A DNA stretch of 64,000 bases from Vampirovibrionales bacterium (GTDB lineage Bacteria > Cyanobacteriota > Vampirovibrionia > Vampirovibrionales > Vampirovibrionaceae), in contig JAJCZA010000029.1 in the NCBI GenBank assembly GCA_029262635.1, positions 29,938 to 93,937 of the forward strand, read 5' to 3'. This document shows, piece after piece, positions 15,781 to 33,229 of the stretch (positions within the stretch are counted from its first letter, which is position 1; every line of letters starts with the position of its first letter). The translations under genes were made by a program, and so were the position numbers. Under the pieces are notes generated by a model, which saw only the letters and a program-made list of their open reading frames with translations, was not told the DNA's origin and did no database searches.

Positions 15781-17535
15781 CTACTTGATTTGGTTATAGG
15801 CGCTGTTGAGTAAGCCCAGGACATTAATCAGGCTGGCGTTGTAGAGGATTTGCGTCTCGTTAACGGAAAACGCTTTTTCATCATCCACGTAGCTCATAGC
15901 TTGCATACCTTTGGGCGTTTTGCCATCGTTGGGATAGTTGTTGGGACCAGCGACCAGCAAGCCGGGAATCACTTGGCCGCCTCGCTGAACGAATCGATGG
16001 TAGGGGTGTTTGACTGAATTGGGAGAGATGCCCGTGACATAGGTGATATCCACCGGGTTCATGCCAAAGAAATAGTGCACCATATTGGCTGCTGCTTCCC
16101 GGTATTTATTCCCATGGGTCATTCGGTAAGCCGAAAGCAGGATTGAGGCGTGTTCCAGAATTTGATGGTTAGAGCCACGCGTGTATTGCAATACGCTTAC
16201 GTGGTATGAATTGTTGTTCACTCGCTTTACCAGCATATCGGCTGAGTGTACAATTTGACGTCGAAAATAGTTAACGATGGTTTTATCCCGTTTATCACTC
16301 TGGGTGTATAGAACATAGTTCTCCATGCCCAGAATCACCGGATTTTTCCAGGAATAAGGTTCTATCTTGACCGATTTGTAGTTTTTTTCAATATAGTGGG
16401 CGTATTTAGCTTTTCCTGTGGCAAGATACAGCTCGATGGCCGCCCACAGTCGGTAGTTTCTATCACCTGCGGCGTTAATGTACTCTCGTGAACCGGCATC
16501 GTCATCTAAATCGACGTCAAGGAGATTTTCCGGGTGGGTTTCCAGGTATTTCCAGGCCCGTTCAGCGGCAATTAAATTTTTGACGGCATAGCCAAAATCA
16601 GCTTTTTTATAATTCCTAGAAGCAATGGCCATAACGGCCGCTCCAATGGCCGTATCTTGCGATGTGACACCAAACACATAGCGACGTTGCGTATCGTATT
16701 CCGGTGATTTTGTCGTAGGAAAAGATTTACCAGCCACTTTTCTGTAAAACACTCCGTCGTTTCGTTGCATGGCCAACAACCAGTCTAATCCGAATTTAAT
16801 TTCATGCAGGTAGTCCGCTACATCACCCAATCCCGGCTCTGCCATCGGATAATCCAGCTTGAGATAGCGCATGTTTTTAGGATCGACTTCGTTTACGGCT
16901 AGCATTTTAGCAACGGACAGACCTGTGGTGGTTACAAATTTGGCGTAATTATTACTGTTATACCAACCACCGCCGGCGTCTTTAAAAAAAATATCGCCCG
17001 TGTCCCGATCTTCCACGTAACCATCTTCCAGGTGAGTTGCCTCGCGAAGAATCCGGTTATTTTTTCCGACAAGCTCTTGTCCGCTTCGCTGTAGATAAAA
17101 CGAACGAACCGAAGGGATCATAGCATCCCAGTACAAGAATTCGGAAATATGAATCGGCACACTAATATCCGTGCCCTTAATCCGGAGCTGAAAATCACCG
17201 GGCTGTTTAAAATCAGAAAAATCAACAATCCAACGTTCCGCACCGGGGCCTTGCATTTTGTCGTCGACAAAGCGCTTAACGCTTTCTAGCTTGTAAAGTA
17301 CTTTGCCGATTTTAAAGGGAATAGCGTGTTTATAGGTTGGATCAAAAATTTCCAGTTTAACCTCGGTGCCCTTGGGCACATCTTCTAGAATGGCATGTTT
17401 AGTTGCGTTGGGATGATAGCCCACCTGATCGACTTTGAGCGTATAGGCGTCGGCGAAAAAACTGCCCATGAGCAAAAGGCACACGACCCAGAAGAAAATA
17501 GAACGAGATATCCACTTCCACGTTTGATGATTCAT
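15781..17535 (-). CDS. Secreted GH9-family-like protein with N-terminal Ig-like (CelD_N) domain; catalytic DAGD motif replaced by NSNN
   Basis: Signal peptide MNHQTWKWISRSIFFWVVCLLLMGSFFADA. CelD_N start YTLKVDQVGYHP. GH9 block DAGGGWYNSNNYAKF (compare GGWYDAGDxxKF), HPYHRF, and C-terminal NETQILYNAS. Start chosen at ATG 17535; the track ORF extends to 17667. Confidence 0.75.
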   Translation of the reverse strand: MNHQTWKWISRSIFFWVVCLLLMGSFFADAYTLKVDQVGYHPNATKHAILEDVPKGTEVKLEIFDPTYKHAIPFKIGKVLYKLESVKRFVDDKMQGPGAERWIVDFSDFKQPGDFQLRIKGTDISVPIHISEFLYWDAMIPSVRSFYLQRSGQELVGKNNRILREATHLEDGYVEDRDTGDIFFKDAGGGWYNSNNYAKFVTTTGLSVAKMLAVNEVDPKNMRYLKLDYPMAEPGLGDVADYLHEIKFGLDWLLAMQRNDGVFYRKVAGKSFPTTKSPEYDTQRRYVFGVTSQDTAIGAAVMAIASRNYKKADFGYAVKNLIAAERAWKYLETHPENLLDVDLDDDAGSREYINAAGDRNYRLWAAIELYLATGKAKYAHYIEKNYKSVKIEPYSWKNPVILGMENYVLYTQSDKRDKTIVNYFRRQIVHSADMLVKRVNNNSYHVSVLQYTRGSNHQILEHASILLSAYRMTHGNKYREAAANMVHYFFGMNPVDITYVTGISPNSVKHPYHRFVQRGGQVIPGLLVAGPNNYPNDGKTPKGMQAMSYVDDEKAFSVNETQILYNASLINVLGLLNSAYNQIK

Positions 17536-17605
17536 TAGATAAGGTGTCCTCATATACAATTCAAAAGCAACTTTTGTAATATTAAGATACCTCAACCCAG
17601 CGCGT

Positions 17606-19297
17606 ATGTGTACAATGGATAGCATGTTTAGAACAAAACTTTTTGCAAAGCTGAATCTTGACTCCACACAGATGAGCCGAGGACTTTGGATTTTGCTGAT
17701 TTTGCTGATTCTTTTTGGGTCGGCTCTCCGATTGTTTCAGTGGGACGAACGAAGTCTATGGCAGGATGAAGTCTTTACGGTTTCTCTTGCCACGGGAAAT
17801 CCCCTGTTTGAATCAACCTTGTTGCCCGATAATTTTGAACCGGATCCGTCAACCCCTCAAGCGCCTGAATATTATCGAAAAAAAGCCAATGCTCTCCAGT
17901 CATGGGATGATTTTGTGGCTGGGCTTCAGCACAATATCCAGATGCCCTTCTATCCCTTTGTTATTCGTCATTGGGTCACGTTTTTGACTGATTCCCCGAT
18001 TCACCTGCGGATGTTATCGATTCTAGCCGGGGTATTGGCCATTCCCTCGGCGTTTTTTTTAGGACGAGAGCTTATGGATAACCGGCTTGGACTTCTTATG
18101 GCAGGCATCTTTACTTTATCCGGCTTTCAGTTGATTTATAGCCAAACGGCTCGGGTTTACGCCTTGCTCACCCTGATTACCTTACTCTCTTCATGGGTGC
18201 TTATTCGGCTAACTCGGTTGCCTCAAAGGAAAAAAAGCCTCCTCTGCTTGCTTTTTGCGGTGTTAAGCTTATTGGGGGCTTACAGTCACTACTTTTACGG
18301 GTTTATCCTGATTTTTCATGGCGCTTGGGCTGTATTGCAGAGTGTCAAGTCTTCTGAACTTAGAAAACCTTTGCTGATAACAGGTTTAATGATTGGCTTT
18401 TTTAGCCTGCCCGGCTTGTGGCTTCTTTTCAATCAACTCCAGTTTATTAAAACAATCGGGCATGGCAACCTCAATGGATTATGGGAACCGTTAAACCTGA
18501 TGGAACGCTTGTGGAGTAATCTGCTTTCTATGATTAGTCCCAAGGATACTCCGACAAAAATTGTTGTTTTTATGCTTATTATTGGAGGTGTTGTTCAGGG
18601 CCTTCGAAAAAAATTACCAGCGCCTCCACTGCTCTTTGCCGGCCTCTGGTTACTTATCCTGGTTGGTGGGCTGGTTAGTGTGGATCTTATCAGTGAAACC
18701 CATCGGATTATGTCCAAGCGTTACCTGATTTTAGCCTCACCGGCAATAGTTTTACTGCTTGCTTACGGGCTTTACGCTCTTTTTACCAGCTTTCCAAAGC
18801 AAAGAGTCATTGTTGGCCTTCTTTTTTGCGGTTTTGTGGGCTTAATGGCTCAAAACTGCGTTCAGGTGCTAAGCGGAGAGAAATTTTTACGTAAAGAGGA
18901 TTATCGAAGTGCTGGATTAGTGATTCAAGCGGAACACCAACCGGGTGATCTCGTTTTGATTTCTCATTCGGGTGTTCACGCGGCAGGAATGGCCTTTTAT
19001 TTACCAGATGTTATAACGATGGCAGGTATTAGTCGGCGAAATGAGGGTACAGTATGGCTACCCAGTAAACTGGCTCAACATTTAAGTGGGTTGACTCAGA
19101 ATAAGTCCAACGTCTGGCTGGTTGAAACGCATATCCGTCCTCGCTCGCTTCAACAAGCCATTGAAGCCTGGATGAACCAGAGTTATAGCCTGAAGAGTAC
19201 CCGAAAATTCAGCAGTGTCCGCCTACTCCAGTTTAAAAAAACAGGAAATGCAAGAGGCTTTAGAAGGATGAAAACCCGGCGTGCTGATCTAAAATAG
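17606..19297 (+). CDS. GT-C fold membrane glycosyltransferase (ArnT/PMT, GT39/GT83-like) #1
   Basis: Polytopic. First loop is LFQWDERSLWQDEVFT (the DE motif typical of PMT/ArnT). The start may be the internal Met at 17672 (MSRGLWILLILLILFG). Confidence 0.7.
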   Translation: MCTMDSMFRTKLFAKLNLDSTQMSRGLWILLILLILFGSALRLFQWDERSLWQDEVFTVSLATGNPLFESTLLPDNFEPDPSTPQAPEYYRKKANALQSWDDFVAGLQHNIQMPFYPFVIRHWVTFLTDSPIHLRMLSILAGVLAIPSAFFLGRELMDNRLGLLMAGIFTLSGFQLIYSQTARVYALLTLITLLSSWVLIRLTRLPQRKKSLLCLLFAVLSLLGAYSHYFYGFILIFHGAWAVLQSVKSSELRKPLLITGLMIGFFSLPGLWLLFNQLQFIKTIGHGNLNGLWEPLNLMERLWSNLLSMISPKDTPTKIVVFMLIIGGVVQGLRKKLPAPPLLFAGLWLLILVGGLVSVDLISETHRIMSKRYLILASPAIVLLLAYGLYALFTSFPKQRVIVGLLFCGFVGLMAQNCVQVLSGEKFLRKEDYRSAGLVIQAEHQPGDLVLISHSGVHAAGMAFYLPDVITMAGISRRNEGTVWLPSKLAQHLSGLTQNKSNVWLVETHIRPRSLQQAIEAWMNQSYSLKSTRKFSSVRLLQFKKTGNARGFRRMKTRRADLK

Positions 19298-22918: not shown

Positions 22919-24640
22919 TTACTTCATTTGCCAGAGGGCGGCATCATTTTGAACCGGGTGCCTGAAAACGTCTGAAAAAGAGCGATGATAGACCTGTAAA
23001 ACAGGTTTTAAATACCGGTCAGACTCTCCAAATGCCGTGTCTTCAAGGATATAAACTGATCCATAACGCTGTTGCTTTTCTTGAAGGTAACTGTAAAATG
23101 CTTCTGTATCAGCGGTGAATGGGAAGGCAAGCGATTTTCTGTCACTATAATAATACGCCACTGGAGGCTTTCGGGTTATAATCAGGCTATTAGTAGGCGT
23201 ATTCTCTTTGATCCAGAGTAAGGTTTCATAATAGGCCCGATTATCAGGGCGACGTGAGGGGCCAACCTGAGCTATTTTAAGTTTATACCCGGCATTAACC
23301 CACCGCAGGGTATCTGGCAGGTGTCCACCCAGAAGTGCTACGCCGACAAACAGAGATAAGAAGTTTATGGAAACCTTTCTAAAGAAAGGTAATGGGAAGT
23401 GAGGTTGCAATAACTCAAGGCTACTCAGGATTCCTTGGTAGAGAATAATCAAAATAAAGGGAAAAACAGGCAGAATAAATCGAGGTGAGATGTAAGGATA
23501 AATCGCAAACACCCCTAAATAAATAATTAAATACAAGGACATAAGGGGGTAAGCCCTAAAAATAGAGGAAACTCCCACCAGGAAAAGAAGTGCCAAAAAC
23601 GGGGTGGCGTAATAAATAATATTGATTTTACTTCCATCTTCCGTTTTTACTCGAATAGGGGGCAAGAGCTGATCGGTTACGATTTTGCTATAGCCTGTGA
23701 CCCGTGCGCCAATAATTTCGGCATAATCTTCCAGTCCCTTGGCCATATGAGCGTTGTCTTGTGCTACAGGACTTTGCACCAGAAAATGTTTGATAAACTC
23801 CAGTTTAATGGGTGATTTATCGAGGAGGCTGCTTACTCCGGCTTGGTTCAGGGTCTCCCCCGTGACGGTGTGTGTACTTCGGTAGTAATGTTCATAGCCG
23901 GGCCAAAGTCCAGCGGCTAAAAGCAAAATAACGGCGGAAACTGTTAGAGTTTTCCATTCTTTTTTGAGCAGGAGGTAGGCTAAAAACCCGAGTAAAAGTG
24001 AGACACCCACTTGCCGCATCCAAAAAGACAGGGCGATGAAGATAATCCCCCAAGCTAAATGGGAGGAGAACCCTTTTGAGGAAGCGATTTCCTGGTTTTT
24101 TTCGAGGATTTTACTTTTCTGCCAGTGAGATAAAAAGAATAATGCTGCCATGGACAAAGCCCAGTAAGGCACATCAGACAAGACATCACTGCTGTATTTA
24201 AATATTAATGGATTGATCGCCAGAAAGAGGGTCAGTATACGGGTGTGCCAAAGGGAGAAATGGTCCCGAAGCCAATAATAAAACAGGGGAATGGATGCTA
24301 GAAAGAGGAGGTGAATTCCGCCTTTTAATACCCATTGGGCGGACTCCAGATCAGGCGTTCCTGATAACTTAAGCCAACCAGCAATTAATAGGGGGAGCAA
24401 TGGGGGAAATGTAAAATAGGGCTGAGCTTCTGGCCCATATTCTAGTAAATAGCCTTTTCCTGAGGCCAATGCCTGCCCAATCAGGCAGAAAATCGCGCTA
24501 TCGTGATTGACTACGGTTAAATAAGGGTTGAGCATTAATCCGAAAAGAACAGTAGAGAGAGCAAGCACCATGAGTAGAAATGGGCGATCTTTTTCAGTGA
24601 ACCACTGAATAAACGGGTTGTTATTGCAATTTTGTTGCAT
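22919..24640 (-). CDS. GT-C fold membrane glycosyltransferase (ArnT/PMT-like) #2
   Basis: 573 aa with about 12 TM segments. The N-terminal region has a DSAIF...G motif after TM1. Divergent from the GT2 operon. Confidence 0.6.
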   Translation of the reverse strand: MQQNCNNNPFIQWFTEKDRPFLLMVLALSTVLFGLMLNPYLTVVNHDSAIFCLIGQALASGKGYLLEYGPEAQPYFTFPPLLPLLIAGWLKLSGTPDLESAQWVLKGGIHLLFLASIPLFYYWLRDHFSLWHTRILTLFLAINPLIFKYSSDVLSDVPYWALSMAALFFLSHWQKSKILEKNQEIASSKGFSSHLAWGIIFIALSFWMRQVGVSLLLGFLAYLLLKKEWKTLTVSAVILLLAAGLWPGYEHYYRSTHTVTGETLNQAGVSSLLDKSPIKLEFIKHFLVQSPVAQDNAHMAKGLEDYAEIIGARVTGYSKIVTDQLLPPIRVKTEDGSKINIIYYATPFLALLFLVGVSSIFRAYPLMSLYLIIYLGVFAIYPYISPRFILPVFPFILIILYQGILSSLELLQPHFPLPFFRKVSINFLSLFVGVALLGGHLPDTLRWVNAGYKLKIAQVGPSRRPDNRAYYETLLWIKENTPTNSLIITRKPPVAYYYSDRKSLAFPFTADTEAFYSYLQEKQQRYGSVYILEDTAFGESDRYLKPVLQVYHRSFSDVFRHPVQNDAALWQMK

Positions 24641-24763: not shown

Positions 24764-26386
24764 ATGTTGAACCAGCTCCTTCCTCAATTCAATCATTTTT
24801 TCGCCCGGTTGGATGCCGGGGAAATCGTTCCCCATGCCCGCCCTTTGGCCCGTGTTATTGCGCCAAGTATTGCGGCAGCGCTGGCAAGTACTCAGTTGGC
24901 GATTGACTTAAAAAACGCGCCGGATCGGAAAACCCAAAAAAAAGTATTGATTCGGGACCTGCTGGCAATGGGGGGGATTATTGTTGGGCTGATAGCGGCG
25001 AGCAGAGCTTTAAGATGGCACTACGGTGTTTCCAACCATCTGCATTTGCCAGGAATTGCTCATGAACACGCCGAAAAAGCGGCAAACACGGCGAAAAAAA
25101 TCTTGAAAACTTCGCATGAGCGAATTACAGCCCTGTTTAAATCACCGAAATGCGATCACGCTGGTGAAGGTGTGGTTCGACTTCAGTCGATGGCTTTTGG
25201 CGGTATTTTAGGGGGCGGATTAGGCGGATTATTAGCGGATCGCATCAATGGAGAAGACCTGAGGCGAATGGCTGGCTTTAAATTAAAAGAAGGCTTATTT
25301 CAATACATTGGGAACATCACCTTTTGCACCGTGTCTATTTTGGCCATTGGTAAGTTGGGCAGGTATTGGGCGGAAAAGTACGCGGAATCTATCCTAAAAA
25401 AGGGGATGAAAACCCTTGAAGTATTTAAAGAAAAAACGGAAAAACATTTGAAAAACCTTATGGAAAAAGAAGTGGGCGATTTGAATACCTTGCCAGGCTC
25501 GGCGAGTGAATCCTTTGAAACTTATTGGTTGATGGCGACCAAAGATCAGAGGACTCTTCGACACGAATTTCATCATTTGGCCGATCATGCGAAACATCAA
25601 GGCCACGAGAATCCGAAAGCCTTAACTCGCTTGCTGGATCAGATGAAAACAACCCCTATAAAATATTCGCCAGATACTCGATTATTTCAGGAAGGGCTCT
25701 TACGCTACCTTAATGATGAGTTTGGTGAGCGGCTCGCTGGAAGACAAGGGAACGTTCTTTTAAACGAAATAAGCACTGAGCTGCTTCCGACTTTGGGCAA
25801 GTTATTTGAATCGGGTAATAAAAAAGAAGCCACACGGGTGTTTCGTGAATTTTATACCCGTCAGATTCAGGCCGATTTAAAAACAGTGACCCAAGAAAAG
25901 CGACACCTCTTTGATATTGCCAAGGAACGGTTTGCTATTTTTGGTGAGCGTATCGGGATTGTTGCCGGCCTATTTACCGGGATTATTGGTGGAGCCTTTG
26001 CCTCTAATGCCATTAATAAAGGACTCACTGATGTTTTGAACTTACCTGAAGGCCATGAGGTGAATGGCCTGTTCAGTGGACACGATCAAGGCAAGGGCTG
26101 GATGGAAGGGACCGTCGGAGAAAGGGGGATCCATTGGTGGGATGCTATTCTCCATCTCGATGATTGGCCTACAGCCCTTTATATTGCTGGGGTTCATTCT
26201 GTAGAGTCATTTATCAATGTTCTTTATGGGATTTCGGGGATGCTAACGGGTATGGCAGGAACGGACTACAAAACACCTCGATTTCAACCTTCTCAAGGGA
26301 AAAATAGAGGCTTCTACCCCAATAGTTCAGGCTACTCCCCCCTGAGTCGAAATCACCGAACCTACTCACGATTCTTGAATGGTTAG
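24764..26386 (+). CDS. Hypothetical membrane-associated protein (540 aa) within the glycosylation locus
   Basis: ORF with Gly-rich hydrophobic segments (GGILGGGLGGLLADR; GIVAGLFTGIIGGAFASNAI). No family recognised. Confidence 0.55.
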   Translation: MLNQLLPQFNHFFARLDAGEIVPHARPLARVIAPSIAAALASTQLAIDLKNAPDRKTQKKVLIRDLLAMGGIIVGLIAASRALRWHYGVSNHLHLPGIAHEHAEKAANTAKKILKTSHERITALFKSPKCDHAGEGVVRLQSMAFGGILGGGLGGLLADRINGEDLRRMAGFKLKEGLFQYIGNITFCTVSILAIGKLGRYWAEKYAESILKKGMKTLEVFKEKTEKHLKNLMEKEVGDLNTLPGSASESFETYWLMATKDQRTLRHEFHHLADHAKHQGHENPKALTRLLDQMKTTPIKYSPDTRLFQEGLLRYLNDEFGERLAGRQGNVLLNEISTELLPTLGKLFESGNKKEATRVFREFYTRQIQADLKTVTQEKRHLFDIAKERFAIFGERIGIVAGLFTGIIGGAFASNAINKGLTDVLNLPEGHEVNGLFSGHDQGKGWMEGTVGERGIHWWDAILHLDDWPTALYIAGVHSVESFINVLYGISGMLTGMAGTDYKTPRFQPSQGKNRGFYPNSSGYSPLSRNHRTYSRFLNG

Positions 26387-26486
26387 CCGCTGACCGGAGG
26401 CCCCTTAATGTTACTCAAGAAAGGGCAATTTCTCCCGTGTTTTGTGTTAATTTGATAAAGGTCGATTATAATGCAGGAAAAGGGTT

Positions 26487-27575
26487 TTGACAATATCTTC
26501 ACGCTCTGGTAGCCCCACCAATTTACCGCTTATTTCAGTCGTTATTCCTATTTATAACGAATTTGAAACCTTGCCGGAACTGGTTAGCCGGCTGGATGAG
26601 TTGATTCAAGAGTACTCGGCTTATGGGTGGGAAGTCATTTTTATTAACGATGGCAGTTCAGACGGCTCAACTCAACTGCTTTCGGATTTAAGTGCTCGTT
26701 ACCTTTGGGCAAGCGTTCTGCACCTGTCTAGAAATTTTGGTCACCAGACAGCCATTAGTGCTGGGCTTGATTTTGCCCGAGGTGAGGCGGTTATCGTGAT
26801 GGATGGTGATCTTCAGGATCCGCCGGAACTGTTACCGCAGATGATTGAGCGTTGGCAATCGGGCTATGATGTGGTTTATGCCACAAGAAAGCATCGAGAA
26901 GGCGAGACACCGTTCAAACTGTTTACGGCCAAGCTCTTTTACCGCCTTCTTAAAGGCCTATCAGATGTGGATATTCCGTTGGATACGGGTGATTTTCGCC
27001 TTATGAGTCGTCCTGTGGTTAACGCTTTTTCCATGATGCGGGAGAGAAACCGCTTTATCCGAGGCATGGTTAGTTGGGTTGGGTTTTCTCAAACAGCCCT
27101 TTACTATGAGCGAGATAAACGAACCCATGGCGAAACTAAGTATACTCTGCTCAAAATGATTCGTTTTGCTGTGGATGGTTTGTTATCCTTTTCCACCGTC
27201 CCTTTGCAGTGGATTACGACGTTGGGCTTTATCATTTCCGCCATTAGCTTCCTTGCCATTGTTGGCGTTTTCTACGTATCACTTGTTATGCAAATTGCTC
27301 TGCCCGGCTGGAGTTCTCTCATGGTCGGTATTCTGATGATAGGTGGCATCCAATTGGTGTGCATGGGCATGATCGGCGAATACGTCGGTCGAATTTTTGA
27401 TGAAGTGCGCAACCGCCCCCTGTATCTAATTAGCAAAATAGATTCCCAAACTTTGTCCCAAACGACAAAAACGTACCCACCCCAACTCCGTGAGATGATG
27501 ATTCATGACCACTCAAACTCCAGAGAAATCCCACACGCCTTTACCGGACAATCCAACCCCGTCCTTAGCCACTGA
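26487..27575 (+). CDS. GT2 polyprenyl-phosphate sugar synthase (DPM1/ArnC/GtrB-like)
   Basis: ISVVIPIYNEFETLPELV, MDGDLQDPPELLPQMIE and DVVYATR, then two C-terminal TM helices (GtrB architecture). TTG start with an AAAGGG RBS. The about 45-aa C-terminal tail overlaps the next gene by 71 nt. Confidence 0.85.
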   Translation: MTISSRSGSPTNLPLISVVIPIYNEFETLPELVSRLDELIQEYSAYGWEVIFINDGSSDGSTQLLSDLSARYLWASVLHLSRNFGHQTAISAGLDFARGEAVIVMDGDLQDPPELLPQMIERWQSGYDVVYATRKHREGETPFKLFTAKLFYRLLKGLSDVDIPLDTGDFRLMSRPVVNAFSMMRERNRFIRGMVSWVGFSQTALYYERDKRTHGETKYTLLKMIRFAVDGLLSFSTVPLQWITTLGFIISAISFLAIVGVFYVSLVMQIALPGWSSLMVGILMIGGIQLVCMGMIGEYVGRIFDEVRNRPLYLISKIDSQTLSQTTKTYPPQLREMMIHDHSNSREIPHAFTGQSNPVLSH

Positions 27576-28386
27576 GAATACCCTGACGGAGCGTCAGATT
27601 ACTGAAGCTCGTTTTCATGACGAATGGGCCAAATCCATCAATTTTACGGAAATTGATCCGGAAATCACTTTTGAGGCGCCAACGGCCATTGAGTGTCAGT
27701 ATGTCTTGTCGCAAATAGATGAACTAGCTGGTAAGCGTATTTTGGATCTGGGCTGTGGCAGTGGTGAATCGGGCGTGTACTTTGCCAAGCAGGGTGCTGA
27801 GGTTTCGGCCTGTGATATTTCCCCTCAGTTTATTGAAGTGGCAAAACAGTTGGCGAACCATCACAGTGTGTCGCTGGACACGGTTGTCTGTCCGGCGGAA
27901 ACTCTTCCCTATCCGGATGACTCGTTTGATATTGTGTTTGCCAACGGCGTTTTACACCACGTGGACATCCCGCTAGCCATGGAAGAGATTCGTCGGGTAC
28001 TTAAGCCAAGGGGGAAAGGATTTTTCGTCGAGCCTTTGCCCTATAATCCGGTGATTAATATCTATCGTTGGATTGCTAAAGAGGTTCGCACGCCGGACGA
28101 GAAACCTCTGACCTTTACCGATATCGGTACTATCCGTAAACGCTTTCCCAAAACCCATGTAGAATACTTTTGGTTTTTTACGTTGGGGGTTTTTCTGTAT
28201 TTTTTCCTGATTGAACGGGCCAGTACGTCGGAACGGTATTGGAAAAAAATTCTTTATGAAGCGGATAAGTACAAAGCTATGTTCAGCTTTCTAAAAAAAC
28301 TGGATGACGTTATTTTACCTGCCCTGCCCTTACTCAAGCCTCTGTGCTGGAACATGGTTATTCAGATTCAAAAAAACGAGAAATAA
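27505..28386 (+). CDS. Class I SAM-dependent methyltransferase (Methyltransf_11-like) with C-terminal hydrophobic segment
   Basis: ILDLGCGSGESGVYFAKQGAEVSACDISPQFIEVA is motif I. A C-terminal segment FWFFTLGVFLYFFLI follows. Confidence 0.8.
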   Translation: MTTQTPEKSHTPLPDNPTPSLATENTLTERQITEARFHDEWAKSINFTEIDPEITFEAPTAIECQYVLSQIDELAGKRILDLGCGSGESGVYFAKQGAEVSACDISPQFIEVAKQLANHHSVSLDTVVCPAETLPYPDDSFDIVFANGVLHHVDIPLAMEEIRRVLKPRGKGFFVEPLPYNPVINIYRWIAKEVRTPDEKPLTFTDIGTIRKRFPKTHVEYFWFFTLGVFLYFFLIERASTSERYWKKILYEADKYKAMFSFLKKLDDVILPALPLLKPLCWNMVIQIQKNEK

Positions 28387-28423
28387 GTAAGCCCTGACAA
28401 CTCTCGGAGACTTTACCTCTTTT

Positions 28424-29254
28424 ATGGCGCAACTAACCCATTTATTGGATAACACCACCCTCTCTGGCGGGCTGTCTTACTTTGATTACGAATATCAGGT
28501 CGCCGAAGCCATTGTGATCCCTTGGCTAAAAAAACATATTTACCTTAATAATCTATCTGTTGGGGATTTTGGTTGTCATCAGGGAGGTATTCTTCAAGCT
28601 TTTCGAGAACATGGCACGATTAGTTCCGGGACAGGCTATGACTTGAACGAAGACAGCATTCGTACTAGCCCCTTTGTCCGTGACGCTAACTTTCAGCTGG
28701 AAGTTGGCGACGTGCTAACGCTGGATCCGACGGTGAACTCGTTTGATCTTATTCTCATTCGAGATGTGTTGGAACACATTCCAGATTACGAAAACGTGCT
28801 TAGAAAGGCGCAAGCCTGTTTAAAACCGGGTGGGTATTTGTTTATCTCTTTCCCGCCATATTACTCCCCATTTGGTGGGCATCAACAACTGGCCGCTAAT
28901 TGGGCCAAGCTGGTGCCTTATTTGCATTATCTTCCGGAATCTCTGCTGTTTCAGCTCGTATCGCTAGTCGATAACAGCTACATGTCGGCTGAGGACTCTA
29001 AAGGTGACATGACTTCCGTTCGTCGCACTCGCTTAACATTAGGTAAAACCGAAAAAGCTTTTCAAGCAATAGGCCTTCTCCCTGTGGCGCAGGATTACTT
29101 TCTCTTACGGCCCGAGTTTAAAATTCGATACGGGATTCCAGCCCTTCCTTGCGCTATTATGGGACGTATTCCTTTCTTGAGAGAAGTCGTTACCATGGGC
29201 GTTTACTATCTGGTTCAAAAGCCGAATAGCCCCTGTTTAAAGGGACATCATTAA
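28424..29254 (+). CDS. Class I SAM-dependent methyltransferase #2
   Basis: DFGCHQGGILQAF... and DLILIRDVLEHIPDYENVLRKAQACLKPGGYLFISFP. Confidence 0.75.
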   Translation: MAQLTHLLDNTTLSGGLSYFDYEYQVAEAIVIPWLKKHIYLNNLSVGDFGCHQGGILQAFREHGTISSGTGYDLNEDSIRTSPFVRDANFQLEVGDVLTLDPTVNSFDLILIRDVLEHIPDYENVLRKAQACLKPGGYLFISFPPYYSPFGGHQQLAANWAKLVPYLHYLPESLLFQLVSLVDNSYMSAEDSKGDMTSVRRTRLTLGKTEKAFQAIGLLPVAQDYFLLRPEFKIRYGIPALPCAIMGRIPFLREVVTMGVYYLVQKPNSPCLKGHH

Positions 29255-29256
29255 TT

Positions 29257-30204
29257 GTGAGCACGGCCACCCACAACGAAAACACAACCCCACCTCAGCA
29301 TTCGTCAGCTGAGGGTGTTAGCCATTCGCTGGCGGTGATTGAACCGTTGAGTTATCAATGCCCCTTTTGTCGGGGCAAACTGTCTAACGATATGGGTGAA
29401 AGCTATACCTGTTTTGATTGTCGAGCTAATTACTCTTCCCGGTTTCCTCGTGGCAAACGTCAGCCGGATTTTCGGATTGATGGCGGGGTCTATTCTAAAC
29501 GGCTGGATAAAACCGAAAGCTTTCAGAACCGTATTAAAATGATCCTGCGAAAATTTCCGGGTCTGTACCGCTTCTTGGTCTATGTCATCGGCCCGGCGCT
29601 TCTCCTTGGTCCAACCTCTCAAACCTTTGTTAACCAATTGAGTCCACATGACCGGGTGTTGAACATTGGTTCGGGTGTGATGCGCCTGAAAGGTAACGTC
29701 ACCCATCTGGATTATGAACCTTACCCTCATTTAGAAGTTGTTGGTGACGCACATCATCTGCCTTTTTCTGACAACTCCTTTGATGCTGTGGTTTGTGAGA
29801 CCTTGTTGGAACATGTGCCCGAACCTGCCCGGGTTATTAACGAAATGCGGCGGGTATTGCGGCCTGGTGGTAAAATCTACGTGATGATGCCGTTTATTTT
29901 TAATTTTCACGCTGCTCCCAATGATTTTCATCGGTTTACCCACCGGGGATTAGAACATCGGATGCGAGGATTTAAAAAAGATCAGCTTAAGGTTATTGCA
30001 GGGCCCACGTCTGCACTGACCTGCGTGTTGATCGAATGGTTGGCCATGGTCTTTTCATTTGGTAGTAGCACCCTGTATCGCTTTCTCAGTCTGTTTTTTA
30101 TGGTCTTATTATCGCCATTAAAGCTGTTGGACTTTGTTCTTTCTGCCCATCCAGAAGCCATACGCATCGCCTCGGTTCTCCTGTTTATTGGAACCAAGCG
30201 ATAG
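29257..30204 (+). CDS. Class I SAM-dependent methyltransferase #3 with N-terminal Cys4 zinc ribbon
   Basis: CPFCRGKLSN...CFDCRANY is a zinc ribbon. VLNIGSGVMRLKG... and DAVVCETLLEHVPEPARVINEMRRVLRPGGKIYVMMPF form the MTase core. There is a 2-nt gap from the previous gene. Confidence 0.8.
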   Translation: MSTATHNENTTPPQHSSAEGVSHSLAVIEPLSYQCPFCRGKLSNDMGESYTCFDCRANYSSRFPRGKRQPDFRIDGGVYSKRLDKTESFQNRIKMILRKFPGLYRFLVYVIGPALLLGPTSQTFVNQLSPHDRVLNIGSGVMRLKGNVTHLDYEPYPHLEVVGDAHHLPFSDNSFDAVVCETLLEHVPEPARVINEMRRVLRPGGKIYVMMPFIFNFHAAPNDFHRFTHRGLEHRMRGFKKDQLKVIAGPTSALTCVLIEWLAMVFSFGSSTLYRFLSLFFMVLLSPLKLLDFVLSAHPEAIRIASVLLFIGTKR

Positions 30205-30213
30205 GAGCACTCT

Positions 30214-31680
30214 TTGTTCATGCCTGATCTGTTTGAATCTATTTTTATGACCCGCTGGCTAATGTTAGGGTCCATGATGGTTTTGGGTGGGTTTACAGTA
30301 CTCTTAATCCGATCCCTCTGGCGGGATGGAAACACTCTGAAACAGGGGAAGCCAGAATTCCATCCGTTCCGTTGGCCAGTGATCTTGTTGGGTGTTGGGT
30401 TGCTTTTACGGTTGGGCTGGATTATAGCCACCCAACCGGAACCCATTAGTGATTTTCTTATTTATTGGCAATACGCCAGCGCTTTTGCTCAAGGAGGTTA
30501 TACTTACGCGGAGTTGAGCCGGCATCCGGGGATTATTGTCTTATATTCATGGTTTTTTAATCTGTTTGGCACGTCGCTGGCTACAGGTTGGGCCATGAAC
30601 ATGCTTTTTTCGGCGCTCATGATGGTGTTGATGTATGCGTTAGGTACTGATATTTTTGGCCGAAGAGCCGGGTTGCTGGCTTTGGGGTTGACGGCGTTTT
30701 TACCCCAGTTAATAACCTATACAGCACTGTTTGCTTCGGAAACCCCTGCCATTGCCTGCTTTTTGATGGTGCTTTGGGCGGTACTGTACAGCCGGAACCA
30801 TCCCGTCGGGCAGACCCTCGGTTACTGGATTGCTTTGGGGGTTCTGCTTTATGCCACTATTCTTCTTCGCTCCAGTGCCATGATCTTTTTGGGATTGATT
30901 CCTGTGCTGTTTTTTCTGTTTCGCCGAGACTATTGGCAAACGGTTCTCAAGCAATTTGCAGTCTTGGCCGTGACCACGGCCTTGCTGCTTTCTACATGGA
31001 TTGCCCACCAAAACGTTATTGGTGGCAGCCCAAAAATGTTTTGGGGCGCGGAACTCTGGTTGGGGTGTGCGATTCAGTACGAACGTGGTGGACGCTATAC
31101 GGATCCCAAAGACATGGGGTTTTACGAAAAAATTAAACCCTATTACGAAGCGGGTAATTTAATTAAAGCTTATGAAATCATTGGAGAGGAGTCCATGAAA
31201 GTAGTCCTCGCTGATCCGTTTAAATACTTGGCCAATGGTGTTACCCGAATGCGGTATATTGTTTGGACCTCTCAGACTGGCATTCGTTGGAGCCACCGGG
31301 GGAGTCAAGTGGGTTCTGGGTTGATGGATCGCTGGCCTCAAAAATACATCAACAAGCTGGCCAATGTCTCTACGATTCTTTGGCAGATTATTCTGTGCAC
31401 CTCTTTGTTAGGGCTATTTACTTATCGTCCTCGCTTTTATCAAAAACGGTCAGACACCGTACAAGAGACTCATCAAGAAGGGTGGGTTTTTATCCTGGGC
31501 TTTCTTCTTATTTGGGGTGTATTTCATTACCTGTTTGCTGTGGCGAGTGAGCGCTATTCTTTCCAGATCATTCCGTTTATCTTATTGTTCTTCTCCGGTG
31601 GTGTGTTATGGATGATTCGAACCCTAAGCGAGCTTTTCCAAAAATCATCGGTTACAATGGAATCAGAGTCACTTCACTAA
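30214..31680 (+). CDS. GT-C fold membrane glycosyltransferase (ArnT/PMT_2-like) #3, terminal gene of the GT2-MT-MT-MT-GT-C operon
   Basis: 488-aa polytopic protein. Loop WRDGNTLKQGKPEFHPFRWPVILLGVGLLLRLGWIIATQPEPISDFLIYWQYASAFAQGGYTY resembles the ArnT/PMT N-terminal region. It lies 9 nt after MTase #3. Confidence 0.65.
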   Translation: MFMPDLFESIFMTRWLMLGSMMVLGGFTVLLIRSLWRDGNTLKQGKPEFHPFRWPVILLGVGLLLRLGWIIATQPEPISDFLIYWQYASAFAQGGYTYAELSRHPGIIVLYSWFFNLFGTSLATGWAMNMLFSALMMVLMYALGTDIFGRRAGLLALGLTAFLPQLITYTALFASETPAIACFLMVLWAVLYSRNHPVGQTLGYWIALGVLLYATILLRSSAMIFLGLIPVLFFLFRRDYWQTVLKQFAVLAVTTALLLSTWIAHQNVIGGSPKMFWGAELWLGCAIQYERGGRYTDPKDMGFYEKIKPYYEAGNLIKAYEIIGEESMKVVLADPFKYLANGVTRMRYIVWTSQTGIRWSHRGSQVGSGLMDRWPQKYINKLANVSTILWQIILCTSLLGLFTYRPRFYQKRSDTVQETHQEGWVFILGFLLIWGVFHYLFAVASERYSFQIIPFILLFFSGGVLWMIRTLSELFQKSSVTMESESLH

Positions 31681-31692
31681 ATCCTATAATAG

Positions 31693-32184
31693 TTGAAAAC
31701 GCCATTGATGAAATATTTTAAGTACTATAGCATTCTGTTTTTAATGAATTTGGTCTGCTTTTCTATCGTGTTTTGTTCGGGTTTTGCAAACGAGCGCCTT
31801 ATTTTATTGGATGAAACGTTTGGTGGCCCAACCACGTACTTGGACTTAGCCAGTTTGCGGCCGGATTCAGCCAATACAGTCGAATTCAATCTGTTAATCG
31901 ATTATAATCGACCGGCCCCTCCGTACATTGCTCCCAAACCCAAATTTCCCGGCATTCTAAAGCAGGTTCCAGTGGTGGACCGTGCTGTACCCATCCGGAA
32001 AATTCAGTTAAACCTGTTGGCGCACTGCCCACAAAAACAGTATGCCATTACCCGAACGGTTCATTATGATGGGTATCAAAAAGAAATTTACCGACTCCAG
32101 ACCTCAACGCCTCACTGGAAACCTTTCCGACTAAACGACGATCCCGTCGATCGCCTTTTGTACCAACGAGTTTGTCCTTCGTAG
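31693..32184 (+). CDS. Hypothetical secreted protein (163 aa), possibly last gene of the glycosylation operon
   Basis: Signal peptide MKYFKYYSILFLMNLVCFSIVFCSGFA. It lies 12 nt after GT-C #3. Confidence 0.5.
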   Translation: MKTPLMKYFKYYSILFLMNLVCFSIVFCSGFANERLILLDETFGGPTTYLDLASLRPDSANTVEFNLLIDYNRPAPPYIAPKPKFPGILKQVPVVDRAVPIRKIQLNLLAHCPQKQYAITRTVHYDGYQKEIYRLQTSTPHWKPFRLNDDPVDRLLYQRVCPS

Positions 32185-32217: not shown

Positions 32218-32697
32218 TTAGTTTTCTTTGGGTTGAAGTATTTTAAAAAGGTGTGGAAATAGTGCTTTGAAGCGGTTCATCACATGGTGAAATTCTTTAC
32301 AGCTGGTATTTCCATTGCAAATACCCGAGAGCGTAATGTTGGGATAGCTTTTAGAAAGTGTTTCTAGATAACTCTGACTCTCTTCTTGGCCTATCTTTTT
32401 AAGATTTTCCAGATTATGCTGCTGAGCAAAGTTTTCTCGTTCAAGTATCTTCTTTAGAAGAGGATAGATAGAATTTTTATTATGAAGAACTTGCGTGTTT
32501 TCTGGTTTAATGGGTCCTATATTATTGACTCTTATGGTTTCATCATCAAGATTGAGGGCTAATTGAAAAGAGTCATTTCCAAAAGAAGAGAGGGGTGCAA
32601 GTTGCCTATCTTTTCCAGTCAGGTGAGCAGTCAGCAAGGCTTCATTTGTTGACATGTTTGCTGATAAAATCTGAATACTCCCAAATGTGATTGCCAT
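32218..32697 (-). CDS. Hypothetical protein, paralog A of tandem pair
   Basis: 159 aa. Shares LTxxDxxLAP...F.DD.F.L...KILE.R...YL..L.K.YPN.TL...FHHVM..F with 32750-33229. Confidence 0.5.
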   Translation of the reverse strand: MAITFGSIQILSANMSTNEALLTAHLTGKDRQLAPLSSFGNDSFQLALNLDDETIRVNNIGPIKPENTQVLHNKNSIYPLLKKILERENFAQQHNLENLKKIGQEESQSYLETLSKSYPNITLSGICNGNTSCKEFHHVMNRFKALFPHLFKILQPKEN

Positions 32698-32749: not shown

Positions 32750-33229
32750 TTACGAAGCGGGTGGATCTTTTTCTATAAACTGTTCAAAAATCTGCATAAC
32801 ATGGTGAAAATCTTGATAATAATGGGCTCCATTCACGTTTTCAAGGGTCACATTCGGATAGGTTTTCGTCAGCGCATTTAAGTACACTTTATTTTCGATT
32901 CCCTTTTCTTTTTTAAGTGTCGCTAACAGGGCTTGAGCGTTTAGTGTTCGATTTTCCAATATTTTATTGAGCAAGAGGAGAGCATGTTTTGTTTGGATGG
33001 GTACAGTGATTCTCTGTAAGCTGTTTCCAAGCAAAGGCAATTCTCCTTGGACGAGCAATCCCTGTTCGGCATGATTGGCCCGTAACTCAAAAAAATCATC
33101 CTTAAAGGCTGGCACTGGTGCCAAGGCCTGATCCTCTTTCGTTAACCGGACACTCATGGAGGTTTGGTTACGCCCATCTTGATCATAGTGCTTAGCCGAA
33201 CTGACTGAAATACCCTTAAACTTAATCAT
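32750..33229 (-). CDS. Hypothetical protein, paralog B of tandem pair
   Basis: 159 aa, the same length as paralog A and collinear with it. Confidence 0.5.
   Translation of the reverse strand: MIKFKGISVSSAKHYDQDGRNQTSMSVRLTKEDQALAPVPAFKDDFFELRANHAEQGLLVQGELPLLGNSLQRITVPIQTKHALLLLNKILENRTLNAQALLATLKKEKGIENKVYLNALTKTYPNVTLENVNGAHYYQDFHHVMQIFEQFIEKDPPAS

Follow-up and report, generated by a model that had tools for sequence, protein, structure and literature searches.

The 64,000-nucleotide stretch of a Vampirovibrionales genome analyzed here (contig JAJCZA010000029.1; referred to throughout as the window) contains an operon of five co-directional open reading frames (ORFs) on the plus strand, located at 26487-31680. 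The operon is predicted to encode a GtrB-type glycosyltransferase of family 2 (GT2), three class-I S-adenosylmethionine (SAM)-dependent methyltransferases (MTases; designated MT1, MT2, and MT3 in gene order), and a glycosyltransferase of the C-type fold (GT-C). The MTases are very probably a functional part of the GT2/GT-C pathway, a reading that draws upon sequence families, conserved gene linkage, and natural gene fusions. The arrangement is conserved, and it apparently represents an undescribed MTase-coupled glycosylation pathway, as a preliminary description of the sequence had proposed; the linkage, the fusions, and a literature search support that proposal, with the chemistry being an extrapolation from the protein families. 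The complete mechanism considered most closely below, in which a lipid-linked sugar would be O-methylated on the cytoplasmic side of the membrane, flipped, and then transferred by the GT-C, is regarded as an even prospect.

Organization of the operon

The five genes encode proteins of 362 amino acids (GT2, 26487-27575, with a TTG start), 293 amino acids (MT1, 27505-28386), 276 amino acids (MT2, 28424-29254), 315 amino acids (MT3, 29257-30204), and 488 amino acids (GT-C, 30214-31680). The ORF coordinates confirm the tight packing reported in the preliminary description, with intergenic spacings of -71, 37, 2, and 9 nt. The 71-nt overlap between the GT2 and MT1 genes is considered genuine, since the ATG at 27505 is the sole in-frame start within the first ~66 codons of MT1. 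GC content is even over the operon region (0.44-0.47) and therefore does not indicate a recently acquired island. Promoter and terminator scans of 26.2-32.8 kb yielded no signal beyond shuffled background and did not define the ends of the operon. A sigma-70-like promoter match (11/12) was located on the minus strand at 26465-26493, overlapping the first GT2 codons, and a plus-strand TATAAT is present 15 nt upstream of the TTG start; the GT2 leader may be very short, or the GT2 start codon may be mis-set.

Glycosyltransferases of the operon

The first gene product matched Pfam Glycos_transf_2 (E 9e-33). Comparison with the Synechocystis GtrB sll0501 (PDB 5EKP) gave 314 bits over GT2 residues 16-318, an alignment that includes the DxD-type motif 'DGDLQDPP', the motif 'TGDFRLM', and both C-terminal transmembrane (TM) helices. 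The protein comprises a cytoplasmic GT-A domain, two C-terminal TM helices, and an extra tail of 44 amino acids. ArnC structures matched with 166 bits, the NCBIfam scores for PgfS (276 bits) and ArnC (182 bits) were under the equivalog cut-offs of 500 and 529 bits, respectively, and the AglJ model gave only 36 bits. Consistent with the GtrB/ArnC/DPM1-like assignment made earlier, gene 1 is, as judged from its sequence, a GtrB-type polyprenyl-phosphate hexosyltransferase.

The product of the fifth gene matched Pfam PMT_2 with 38.9 bits (cut-off 26.1) and has ~12 predicted TM helices and a small periplasmic region. Its AlphaFold2 (AF2) model, with a predicted local distance difference test score (pLDDT) of 82 and a predicted template modelling score (pTM) of 0.87, displays an extramembrane region of ~110 residues. 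A sequence search against the PDB returned no match. Foldseek comparison of the model with the PDB returned 16 matches at E<1e-3, all 16 being GT-C enzymes (STT3/AglB/PglB, ArnT, and Pmt4) with template modelling scores (TM-scores) of ~0.45. The PMT_2 match and the neighbours of the model thus assign the predicted GT-C fold to gene 5, in line with its earlier designation as ArnT/PMT-like. The catalytic Asp of GT-C enzymes is found just past the first helix, and the present family contains an invariant 'PEPxSDF' motif (D80) right after TM1 as well as an 'RHPG' motif (H104, P105). Only 13 sequence homologues were recovered from 5.8 billion proteins, and those with visible genomic context adjoin MT3 or other MTase genes and GT2 genes. 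The subfamily is small, lineage-restricted, and without a close solved relative.

Methyltransferases of the operon

Class-I SAM-dependent MTase families of Pfam (Methyltransf_11/23/25) were matched by all three proteins, the assignments being Methyltransf_11 for MT1 (E 2e-26), Methyltransf_23 for MT2 (E 3e-18), and Methyltransf_11 for MT3 (E 5e-17). The family assignments made for each ORF in the preliminary description therefore hold. Among themselves, the three share 27-43% identity over only 50-110 residues of the SAM-binding core; they represent three separate families and no recent duplicates. Distinct families are what would be expected for MTases of differing regiospecificities.

A competing explanation is that MT1, MT2, and MT3 are quinone, tRNA, or rRNA housekeeping MTases that came to lie between the GT2 and GT-C genes by chance or hitch-hiking. 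The top NCBIfam names do include UbiE/MenG and UbiG, and the JGI annotation labels some MT2 homologues as benzoquinol methylase. All such scores are low, with best values of 35-61 bits against equivalog cut-offs of 103-420 bits (UbiE/MenG, UbiG, BioC, CmoB, and PrmA), and the matches span the SAM core only, so that close homology to these enzymes was not found. Based upon the NCBIfam cut-offs and the gene neighbourhoods described below, the quinone/tRNA-MTase interpretation of the three proteins was rejected.

MT3 is the most distinctive of the three. It contains the N-terminal Cys4 zinc ribbon (CxxC-13-CxxC; C35, C38, C52, and C55) that had been noted in one of the MTases, followed by a class-I SAM core with motif I 'VLNIGSG' at residue 134. 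Hydropathy analysis flagged residues 99-117, corresponding to a pre-Rossmann helix, and residues 244-308. The AF2 model (pLDDT 84, pTM 0.81) consists of a seven-stranded fold with the ribbon and two pre-Rossmann helices, and hydrophobic helices (residues 250-304) carrying a conserved 'PLKLLD' motif (K289, D292) are inserted between the last two beta-strands. Through these modelled helices MT3 is probably held on the membrane. A C-terminal membrane segment had previously been ascribed to one of the MTases; a weak hydrophobic helix is indeed present in MT1 (217-235), whereas the strongest such segment is that of MT3 (244-308). Family-wide invariants of MT3 include the motif I glycines G138 and G140, the acidic residues D152 and D164, 'LEHV', and H218, D223, and R226. 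The top structural neighbours were RlmA(I) (TM-score 0.41), which has the same ribbon-plus-MTase layout, followed by the glucose O-methyltransferases AtmM and RebM (TM-scores of 0.33-0.41 for the set). A profile search covering 1.84 billion cluster representatives identified at least 1,494 representatives of the MT3 family (50%-identity clusters) at E<=1e-30.

MT1, the variable member of the cassette, contains motif I 'ILDLGCG' at residue 79, and its closest neighbourhood homologue (125 bits) is found in a related Vampirovibrionales locus (L012). The exact MT1 protein is absent from a collection of 15 billion proteins in which MT2, MT3, and the GT-C of the same contig are present; public gene callers probably chose another MT1 start or skipped the gene, given its 71-nt overlap with GT2.

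MT2 is soluble and belongs to a widespread family in which 45-60% identity is kept across lineages. In the Vampirovibrionales relatives, MT2-family genes (L001, L003, and L004) occur with GT2, MT3, and GT-C. In Leptolyngbya and Gaiellaceae, MT2-family genes (L089, 4928-8237; L090, 458-3923; L091, 1968-9023) are positioned between a GT2 gene and a gene for a polytopic membrane protein of the DUF2079 family. The GT2 at these loci is ArnC-like and divergently transcribed, and L091 additionally contains an AsnB-like gene and an MTase with a Trm112-type ribbon. A literature search on DUF2079 found nothing; the family may represent an unrecognized lipid-linked-sugar transferase.

Conservation of the cassette

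Comparison of related Vampirovibrionales loci revealed that GT2, one or more MTases, MT3, and GT-C stay together despite permuted gene order. The order is MT3, GT-C, GT2, MT2 in L003, in which MT3 is 51% identical to that of the window; GT2, MT1, MT3, GT-C in L012; and a family 1 glycosyltransferase (GT1), GT2, MT2, MT3 in L001 and L011. In L004, MT2, MT3, and GT-C precede a gene for the same ribonucleotide reductase that the window encodes. Based upon the gene content of relatives L001-L013, MT3 is the constant MTase of the cassette, and MT1 and MT2 are modular components that come and go.

Outside of the order, an MT3-family scan of one genome per species recovered the family in many CPR/Patescibacteria (Candidate Phyla Radiation; Peribacteria, Saccharibacteria, and Parcubacteria), Ardenticatenaceae, Poribacteria, Planctomycetota, and Holophagae, in addition to Vampirovibrionales. 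Co-occurrence was examined for 51 reference-genome loci with MT3 matches of >=140 bits, and 22 loci from the same scan with generic MTase matches only served as the control; contig ends make the counts for the 51 loci lower bounds. A GtrB-like GT2 gene was present within 6 kb of the MT3-family gene in at least 29 of the 51 loci, compared with 2 of 22 control loci, and a protein with >=7 TM helices was the immediate neighbour in at least 30 of 51 compared with 2 of 22. The linkage of GT2, MTase, and GT-C is kept among the Vampirovibrionales in permuted order, the linkage also extends to CPR genomes, and for MT2 it reaches Leptolyngbya and Gaiellaceae.

The CPR cassette, seen at L065 (3626-11115) and also at L035, L046, L052, and L056, contains GtrA, GT2, an AsnB-like amidotransferase, one or two further MTases, MT3, a polytopic protein of ~580 amino acids with 9-10 TM helices, and a family 9 glycosyltransferase (GT9). 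The presence of the amidotransferase is a hint that the sugar may be amidated (uronamide-type). The polytopic protein, which had no Pfam or NCBIfam match, carries a 'DDEDxY' motif after TM1. GtrA is present in the related cassettes L007 and L065. A further locus (L093, 5202-10863) encodes a 44%-identical relative of the window GT-C together with two MTases, a GT2, and a DegT-family sugar aminotransferase, and represents an Arn-like, amino-sugar version of the cassette.

Natural fusions

Seven fusion proteins were present among the top 148 MT3-family matches; all are metagenomic gene calls, and they fall into several independent clusters. In P0286, a complete PMT_2-type GT-C is followed by a complete MT3 module, and in P0370 a GT2 precedes MT3. 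P0277 joins all three enzymes: it begins with a GT-C that lacks its N-terminal portion and shares 55% identity with P0286 over 537 residues, continues with MT3, and ends with GT2. In the remaining four (P0263, P0266, P0269, and P0278), another MTase is joined to MT3. The GT2 part of the fusions is a short DPM1-like domain without TM helices of its own, and the membrane anchor may be provided by the hydrophobic insert of MT3 or by the GT-C. Fusion of GT-C, MT3, and GT2 suggests that the three enzymes form a physical complex.

The existence of MT3-GT2 and MT3-GT-C fusions in some genomes could also be accommodated if MT3 were a non-catalytic scaffold, i.e. a pseudo-methyltransferase that organizes GT2 and GT-C, with MT1 and MT2 as passengers. 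The ribbon-plus-MTase layout, which recalls Trm112-type adaptor modules, would fit such a role. This explanation is very improbable, as the SAM-binding residues are invariant across the MT3 family and MT2 has a conserved linkage of its own to GT2 and polytopic proteins.

Taken together, the linkage conserved across phyla in permuted order, the enrichment over control loci, and the fixation of the association by gene fusions render chance co-location or a housekeeping role of the MTases untenable, and the probability left to a hitch-hiking origin is minimal. These findings indicate that MT3, and in looser association MT2 and MT1, work with GT2 and GT-C in one pathway.

Proposed pathway

From the enzyme families involved, the pathway would begin with the transfer by GT2 of a hexose from a uridine diphosphate (UDP)-sugar onto polyprenyl (undecaprenyl) phosphate on the cytoplasmic side of the membrane. 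The membrane-seated MT3, together with MT2 and MT1, would then O-methylate different positions of the lipid-linked sugar using cytoplasmic SAM. A flippase encoded outside the window would turn the methylated polyprenyl-phosphate sugar over, and GT-C would finally hand the methylated sugar over to an acceptor in the periplasm, possibly a glycan, a lipid, or a protein.

The order of steps follows from the location of the methyl donor: since SAM is confined to the cytoplasm, the sugar would have to be methylated before it is flipped. As a rule, sugar O-methyltransferases work on sugars already joined to a carrier or aglycone, and one sugar can be the target of several regiospecific MTases. The location of SAM, this general habit of sugar O-methyltransferases, the hydrophobic helices and fusions of MT3, and the presence of up to three unrelated MTases, which would suit methylation of a single sugar at specific positions, together suggest that the lipid-linked sugar is the substrate. 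Editing of a sugar on its lipid carrier is known from ArnD, which deformylates a lipid-linked sugar before flipping. Furthermore, polyprenyl-phosphate-linked pentofuranoses are epimerized and dephosphorylated on the carrier before flipping or transfer (PMC11127046), and the AglP methyltransferase acts in the dolichol-phosphate pathway of Haloferax (PMC3871713).

Methylation might instead take place elsewhere in the same pathway, either on the nucleotide sugar before loading by GT2 (e.g. N- or C-methylation of an amino or deoxy sugar) or on a lipid-pyrophosphate-linked acceptor glycan that is later decorated by GT-C. This alternative is rather unlikely. A membrane-bound product of GT2 accords better than a soluble nucleotide sugar with the hydrophobic helices of MT3 and with the fusions of MT3 to GT-C and GT2. 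The neighbourhood of the operon contains neither aminotransferase or dehydratase genes nor other genes for glycan assembly, and the operon is not bordered by a Wzx/Wzy or ABC-transporter glycan cluster. What keeps the alternative in consideration is that nucleotide-sugar N- and C-methyltransferases of the TylM1 and TylC3 types are well known, and that the DegT-family aminotransferase of L093 and the AsnB-like amidotransferase of the CPR cassettes indicate that the sugar can exceed a plain hexose. In addition, WbdD-type enzymes methylate undecaprenyl-pyrophosphate-linked O-antigen at the cytoplasmic face, as mentioned in PMC11127046.

It is also conceivable, with a low probability, that the MTases methylate a membrane component other than the sugar (polyprenyl phosphate, a phospholipid head group, or a protein acceptor prior to export) and that the sugar is delivered unmethylated. 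MT3 is hydrophobic, and the best PDB sequence matches of the three proteins include phospholipid and phosphoethanolamine N-methyltransferases over the SAM core. These matches of MT1, MT2, and MT3 score 25-68 bits and span only the generic SAM-binding region. Moreover, a lipid head group would explain neither the occurrence of up to three MTase families nor the fusions of other MTases to MT3, and the consistent partners are GT2 and GT-C, not lipid-synthesis genes.

Several observations weigh against the proposed pathway. The window lacks a GtrA-like ORF, its small multi-TM ORFs being DUF2752 and MscL-like proteins. MT1 and MT2 are inconstant, as illustrated by L013, which contains GT2 and MT3 and no other MTase. 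The substrate of MT3 is not diagnosed by its structural neighbours, since Foldseek comparison with the PDB returned only generic class-I MTases with TM-scores <0.5. Homology to the window GT-C was not demonstrated for either of the polytopic proteins that accompany the MTases in other lineages: hhalign comparison with the GT-C profile gave a probability of 28% for the CPR protein, with only the acidic motif of loop 1 aligned, and 0.1% for DUF2079. Finally, some MT3-like genes in Holophagae, in Dactylosporangium, and at L008 have neither GT2 nor GT-C nearby, and the MT3 family is therefore not exclusively used in glycosylation. At the Dactylosporangium locus (L006, 4620-7855), where GT2 and GT-C are absent from the vicinity, the MT3-like gene shares a 4-nt overlap with the end of a gene encoding a 794-amino-acid protein without a Pfam match.

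Comparison with known glycosylation systems

The closest known kind of operon is the three-component GtrB/GtrA/GT-C periplasmic glycosylation system. Such systems have reportedly been reviewed by Mann and Whitfield in 2016. Examples include the O-antigen glucosylation systems of Shigella and Salmonella, CsbB/YfhO, and GacI/GacL, with the set extended in PMC11127046. Similar to these systems, the operon pairs a GtrB-type GT2 that has two C-terminal TM helices with a GT-C-fold transferase, so that two of the three defining components (GT2 and GT-C) are found in it, and the third, GtrA, occurs in the related cassette L007 and in CPR. The operon differs from them in that the window is without a GtrA gene and in that one to three SAM-dependent MTases form an integral part of the cassette, are conserved along with it, and in some cases are fused to its enzymes.

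The Arn pathway, which modifies lipid A with aminoarabinose (ArnC and ArnT, with ArnA/B/D and ArnE/F), likewise combines a GT2 polyprenyl-phosphate-sugar synthase with a PMT_2-type GT-C, and in principle it shares the editing of a lipid-linked sugar before flipping, by ArnD. The editors here are MTases instead, the ArnC score is far under the cut-off (182 versus 529 bits), and ArnA/B/D genes are not located by the operon. As had been reported earlier, no arnA/B/D-like genes were found: formyltransferase/decarboxylase, aminotransferase, and deformylase genes are absent among the ORFs from 12 to 37 kb of the window. An Arn pathway was ruled out on both grounds. The streptococcal Pgf system was ruled out by the sub-threshold PgfS score given above. 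Similarly, identification of the GT-C as a protein O-mannosyltransferase (PMT; family GT39) was ruled out, since it matches PMT_2 only, with no PF02366 match and no luminal MIR domains, has the extramembrane region of ~110 residues, and is distant from Pmt4 (E 9e-4).

Donor modification on the carrier followed by use of the donor by a GT-C is also found in the polyprenyl-phosphate-pentofuranose systems (mycobacterial decaprenylphosphoryl arabinose, DPA, and Citrobacter ORF12-15; PMC11127046). Those systems employ a phosphoribosyl pyrophosphate (PRPP)-dependent phosphoribosyltransferase as the synthase and modify by epimerization, whereas a GtrB-type GT2 and methylation are predicted here. The Agl pathway of Haloferax volcanii (AglJ, a GT2; AglP; and AglB; PMC3871713) resembles the operon in having a SAM-dependent MTase within a dolichol-phosphate-linked pathway that ends in a GT-C-fold enzyme. 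It is archaeal, unlike the present system, its oligosaccharide is N-linked to protein by STT3/AglB, and AglP has no detectable specific relationship to MT1, MT2, or MT3. Among sugar MTases, RebM, AtmM, and the mycobacterial glycopeptidolipid (GPL) Rmt enzymes are class-I SAM-dependent enzymes that methylate a sugar after its attachment to the aglycone. In contrast to MT3, they are soluble, lack the Cys4 ribbon and the hydrophobic insert, and are not linked to GtrB and GT-C genes.

In the descriptions of three-component systems that could be searched and read, no MTase component was mentioned, which agrees with the earlier statement that the known modules carry none. A literature search on MTase-containing Gtr-type systems, CPR glycosylation cassettes, lipid-linked O-methylation, and the function of sll0501 likewise recovered no description of the arrangement. 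A more general hypothesis, held tentatively and slightly short of even confidence, is that a dedicated family of membrane-associated zinc-ribbon MTases works in complex with GtrB-type synthases and GT-C enzymes, and that sugars methylated beforehand, possibly at several O-positions, are in this way exported en bloc to the cell exterior in Vampirovibrionia, in many CPR, and in other phyla. This would constitute an unrecognized fourth function of three-component systems.

Flanking genes

A small ORF (31693-32184, plus strand) begins 12 nt past the GT-C gene and is probably co-transcribed with the operon. The preliminary description had identified it as a small secreted protein; an N-terminal hydrophobic segment (residues 9-27) is present, but the ORF matched neither Pfam nor NCBIfam, none of 88 related loci contains a homologue, and it is not a conserved component. 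Immediately before the operon, an ORF of 540 amino acids (24764-26386) encodes a product with a few hydrophobic segments and a Gly-rich stretch. It had been described as a flanking orphan membrane protein, and its orphan character stands, given that no Pfam or NCBIfam match was found; with no homologue among the 88 related loci, it does not travel with the operon. Next to it, a polytopic membrane protein of 573 amino acids (22919-24640, minus strand) has 7-13 hydrophobic segments. Its proposed identity as a divergent GT-C was not confirmed, as Pfam returned no match and hhalign against the GT-C profile gave a probability of 1.3%; no homologue was detected in the related loci. The small ORF, the 540-amino-acid orphan, and the 573-amino-acid membrane protein were consequently rejected as conserved parts of the system, each lacking homologues in the 88 related loci.

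A second PMT_2-type GT-C of 563 amino acids (17606-19297, plus strand) is encoded 7 kb upstream of the operon, with a Pfam PMT_2 score of 27.9 bits (cut-off 26.1) and nine TM-like segments; the preliminary description had overlooked this gene. Homology with the operon GT-C was not demonstrated by hhalign (probability 3%). The protein may also use a lipid-linked donor, and its membership in the system is uncertain. Its gene is arranged head-to-head with a gene for a glycoside hydrolase family 9 (GH9) endoglucanase with a CelD_N domain (15781-17667, minus strand), the two overlapping at their 5' ends by 62 nt as called. Downstream of the operon, two tandem minus-strand ORFs (32218-32697 and 32750-33229) encode paralogues of 159 amino acids each, which share 33% identity over 150 amino acids (E 8e-20); a convincing family assignment was not obtained for the pair. 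Rfam and tRNA scans of the 64-kb window yielded no matches.

Implications

Cells that place methylated sugars on extracytoplasmic glycans need a route for doing so, SAM being cytoplasmic, and methylation on the lipid carrier would be a simple and general solution. The Melainabacteria/Vampirovibrionia, in which the best protein matches place the organism, are the non-photosynthetic sister group of the cyanobacteria. The cassette is widespread in lineages with nearly unknown envelopes, such as these and the CPR, and offers a testable entry to their surface chemistry. Fusions of GT-C, MT3, and GT2 could serve structural work and the glycoengineering of methylated glycans. Furthermore, a functional annotation would become available for the MT3 family and for the pairing of MT2 with DUF2079, replacing 'benzoquinol methylase' labels that are generic and at times misleading.

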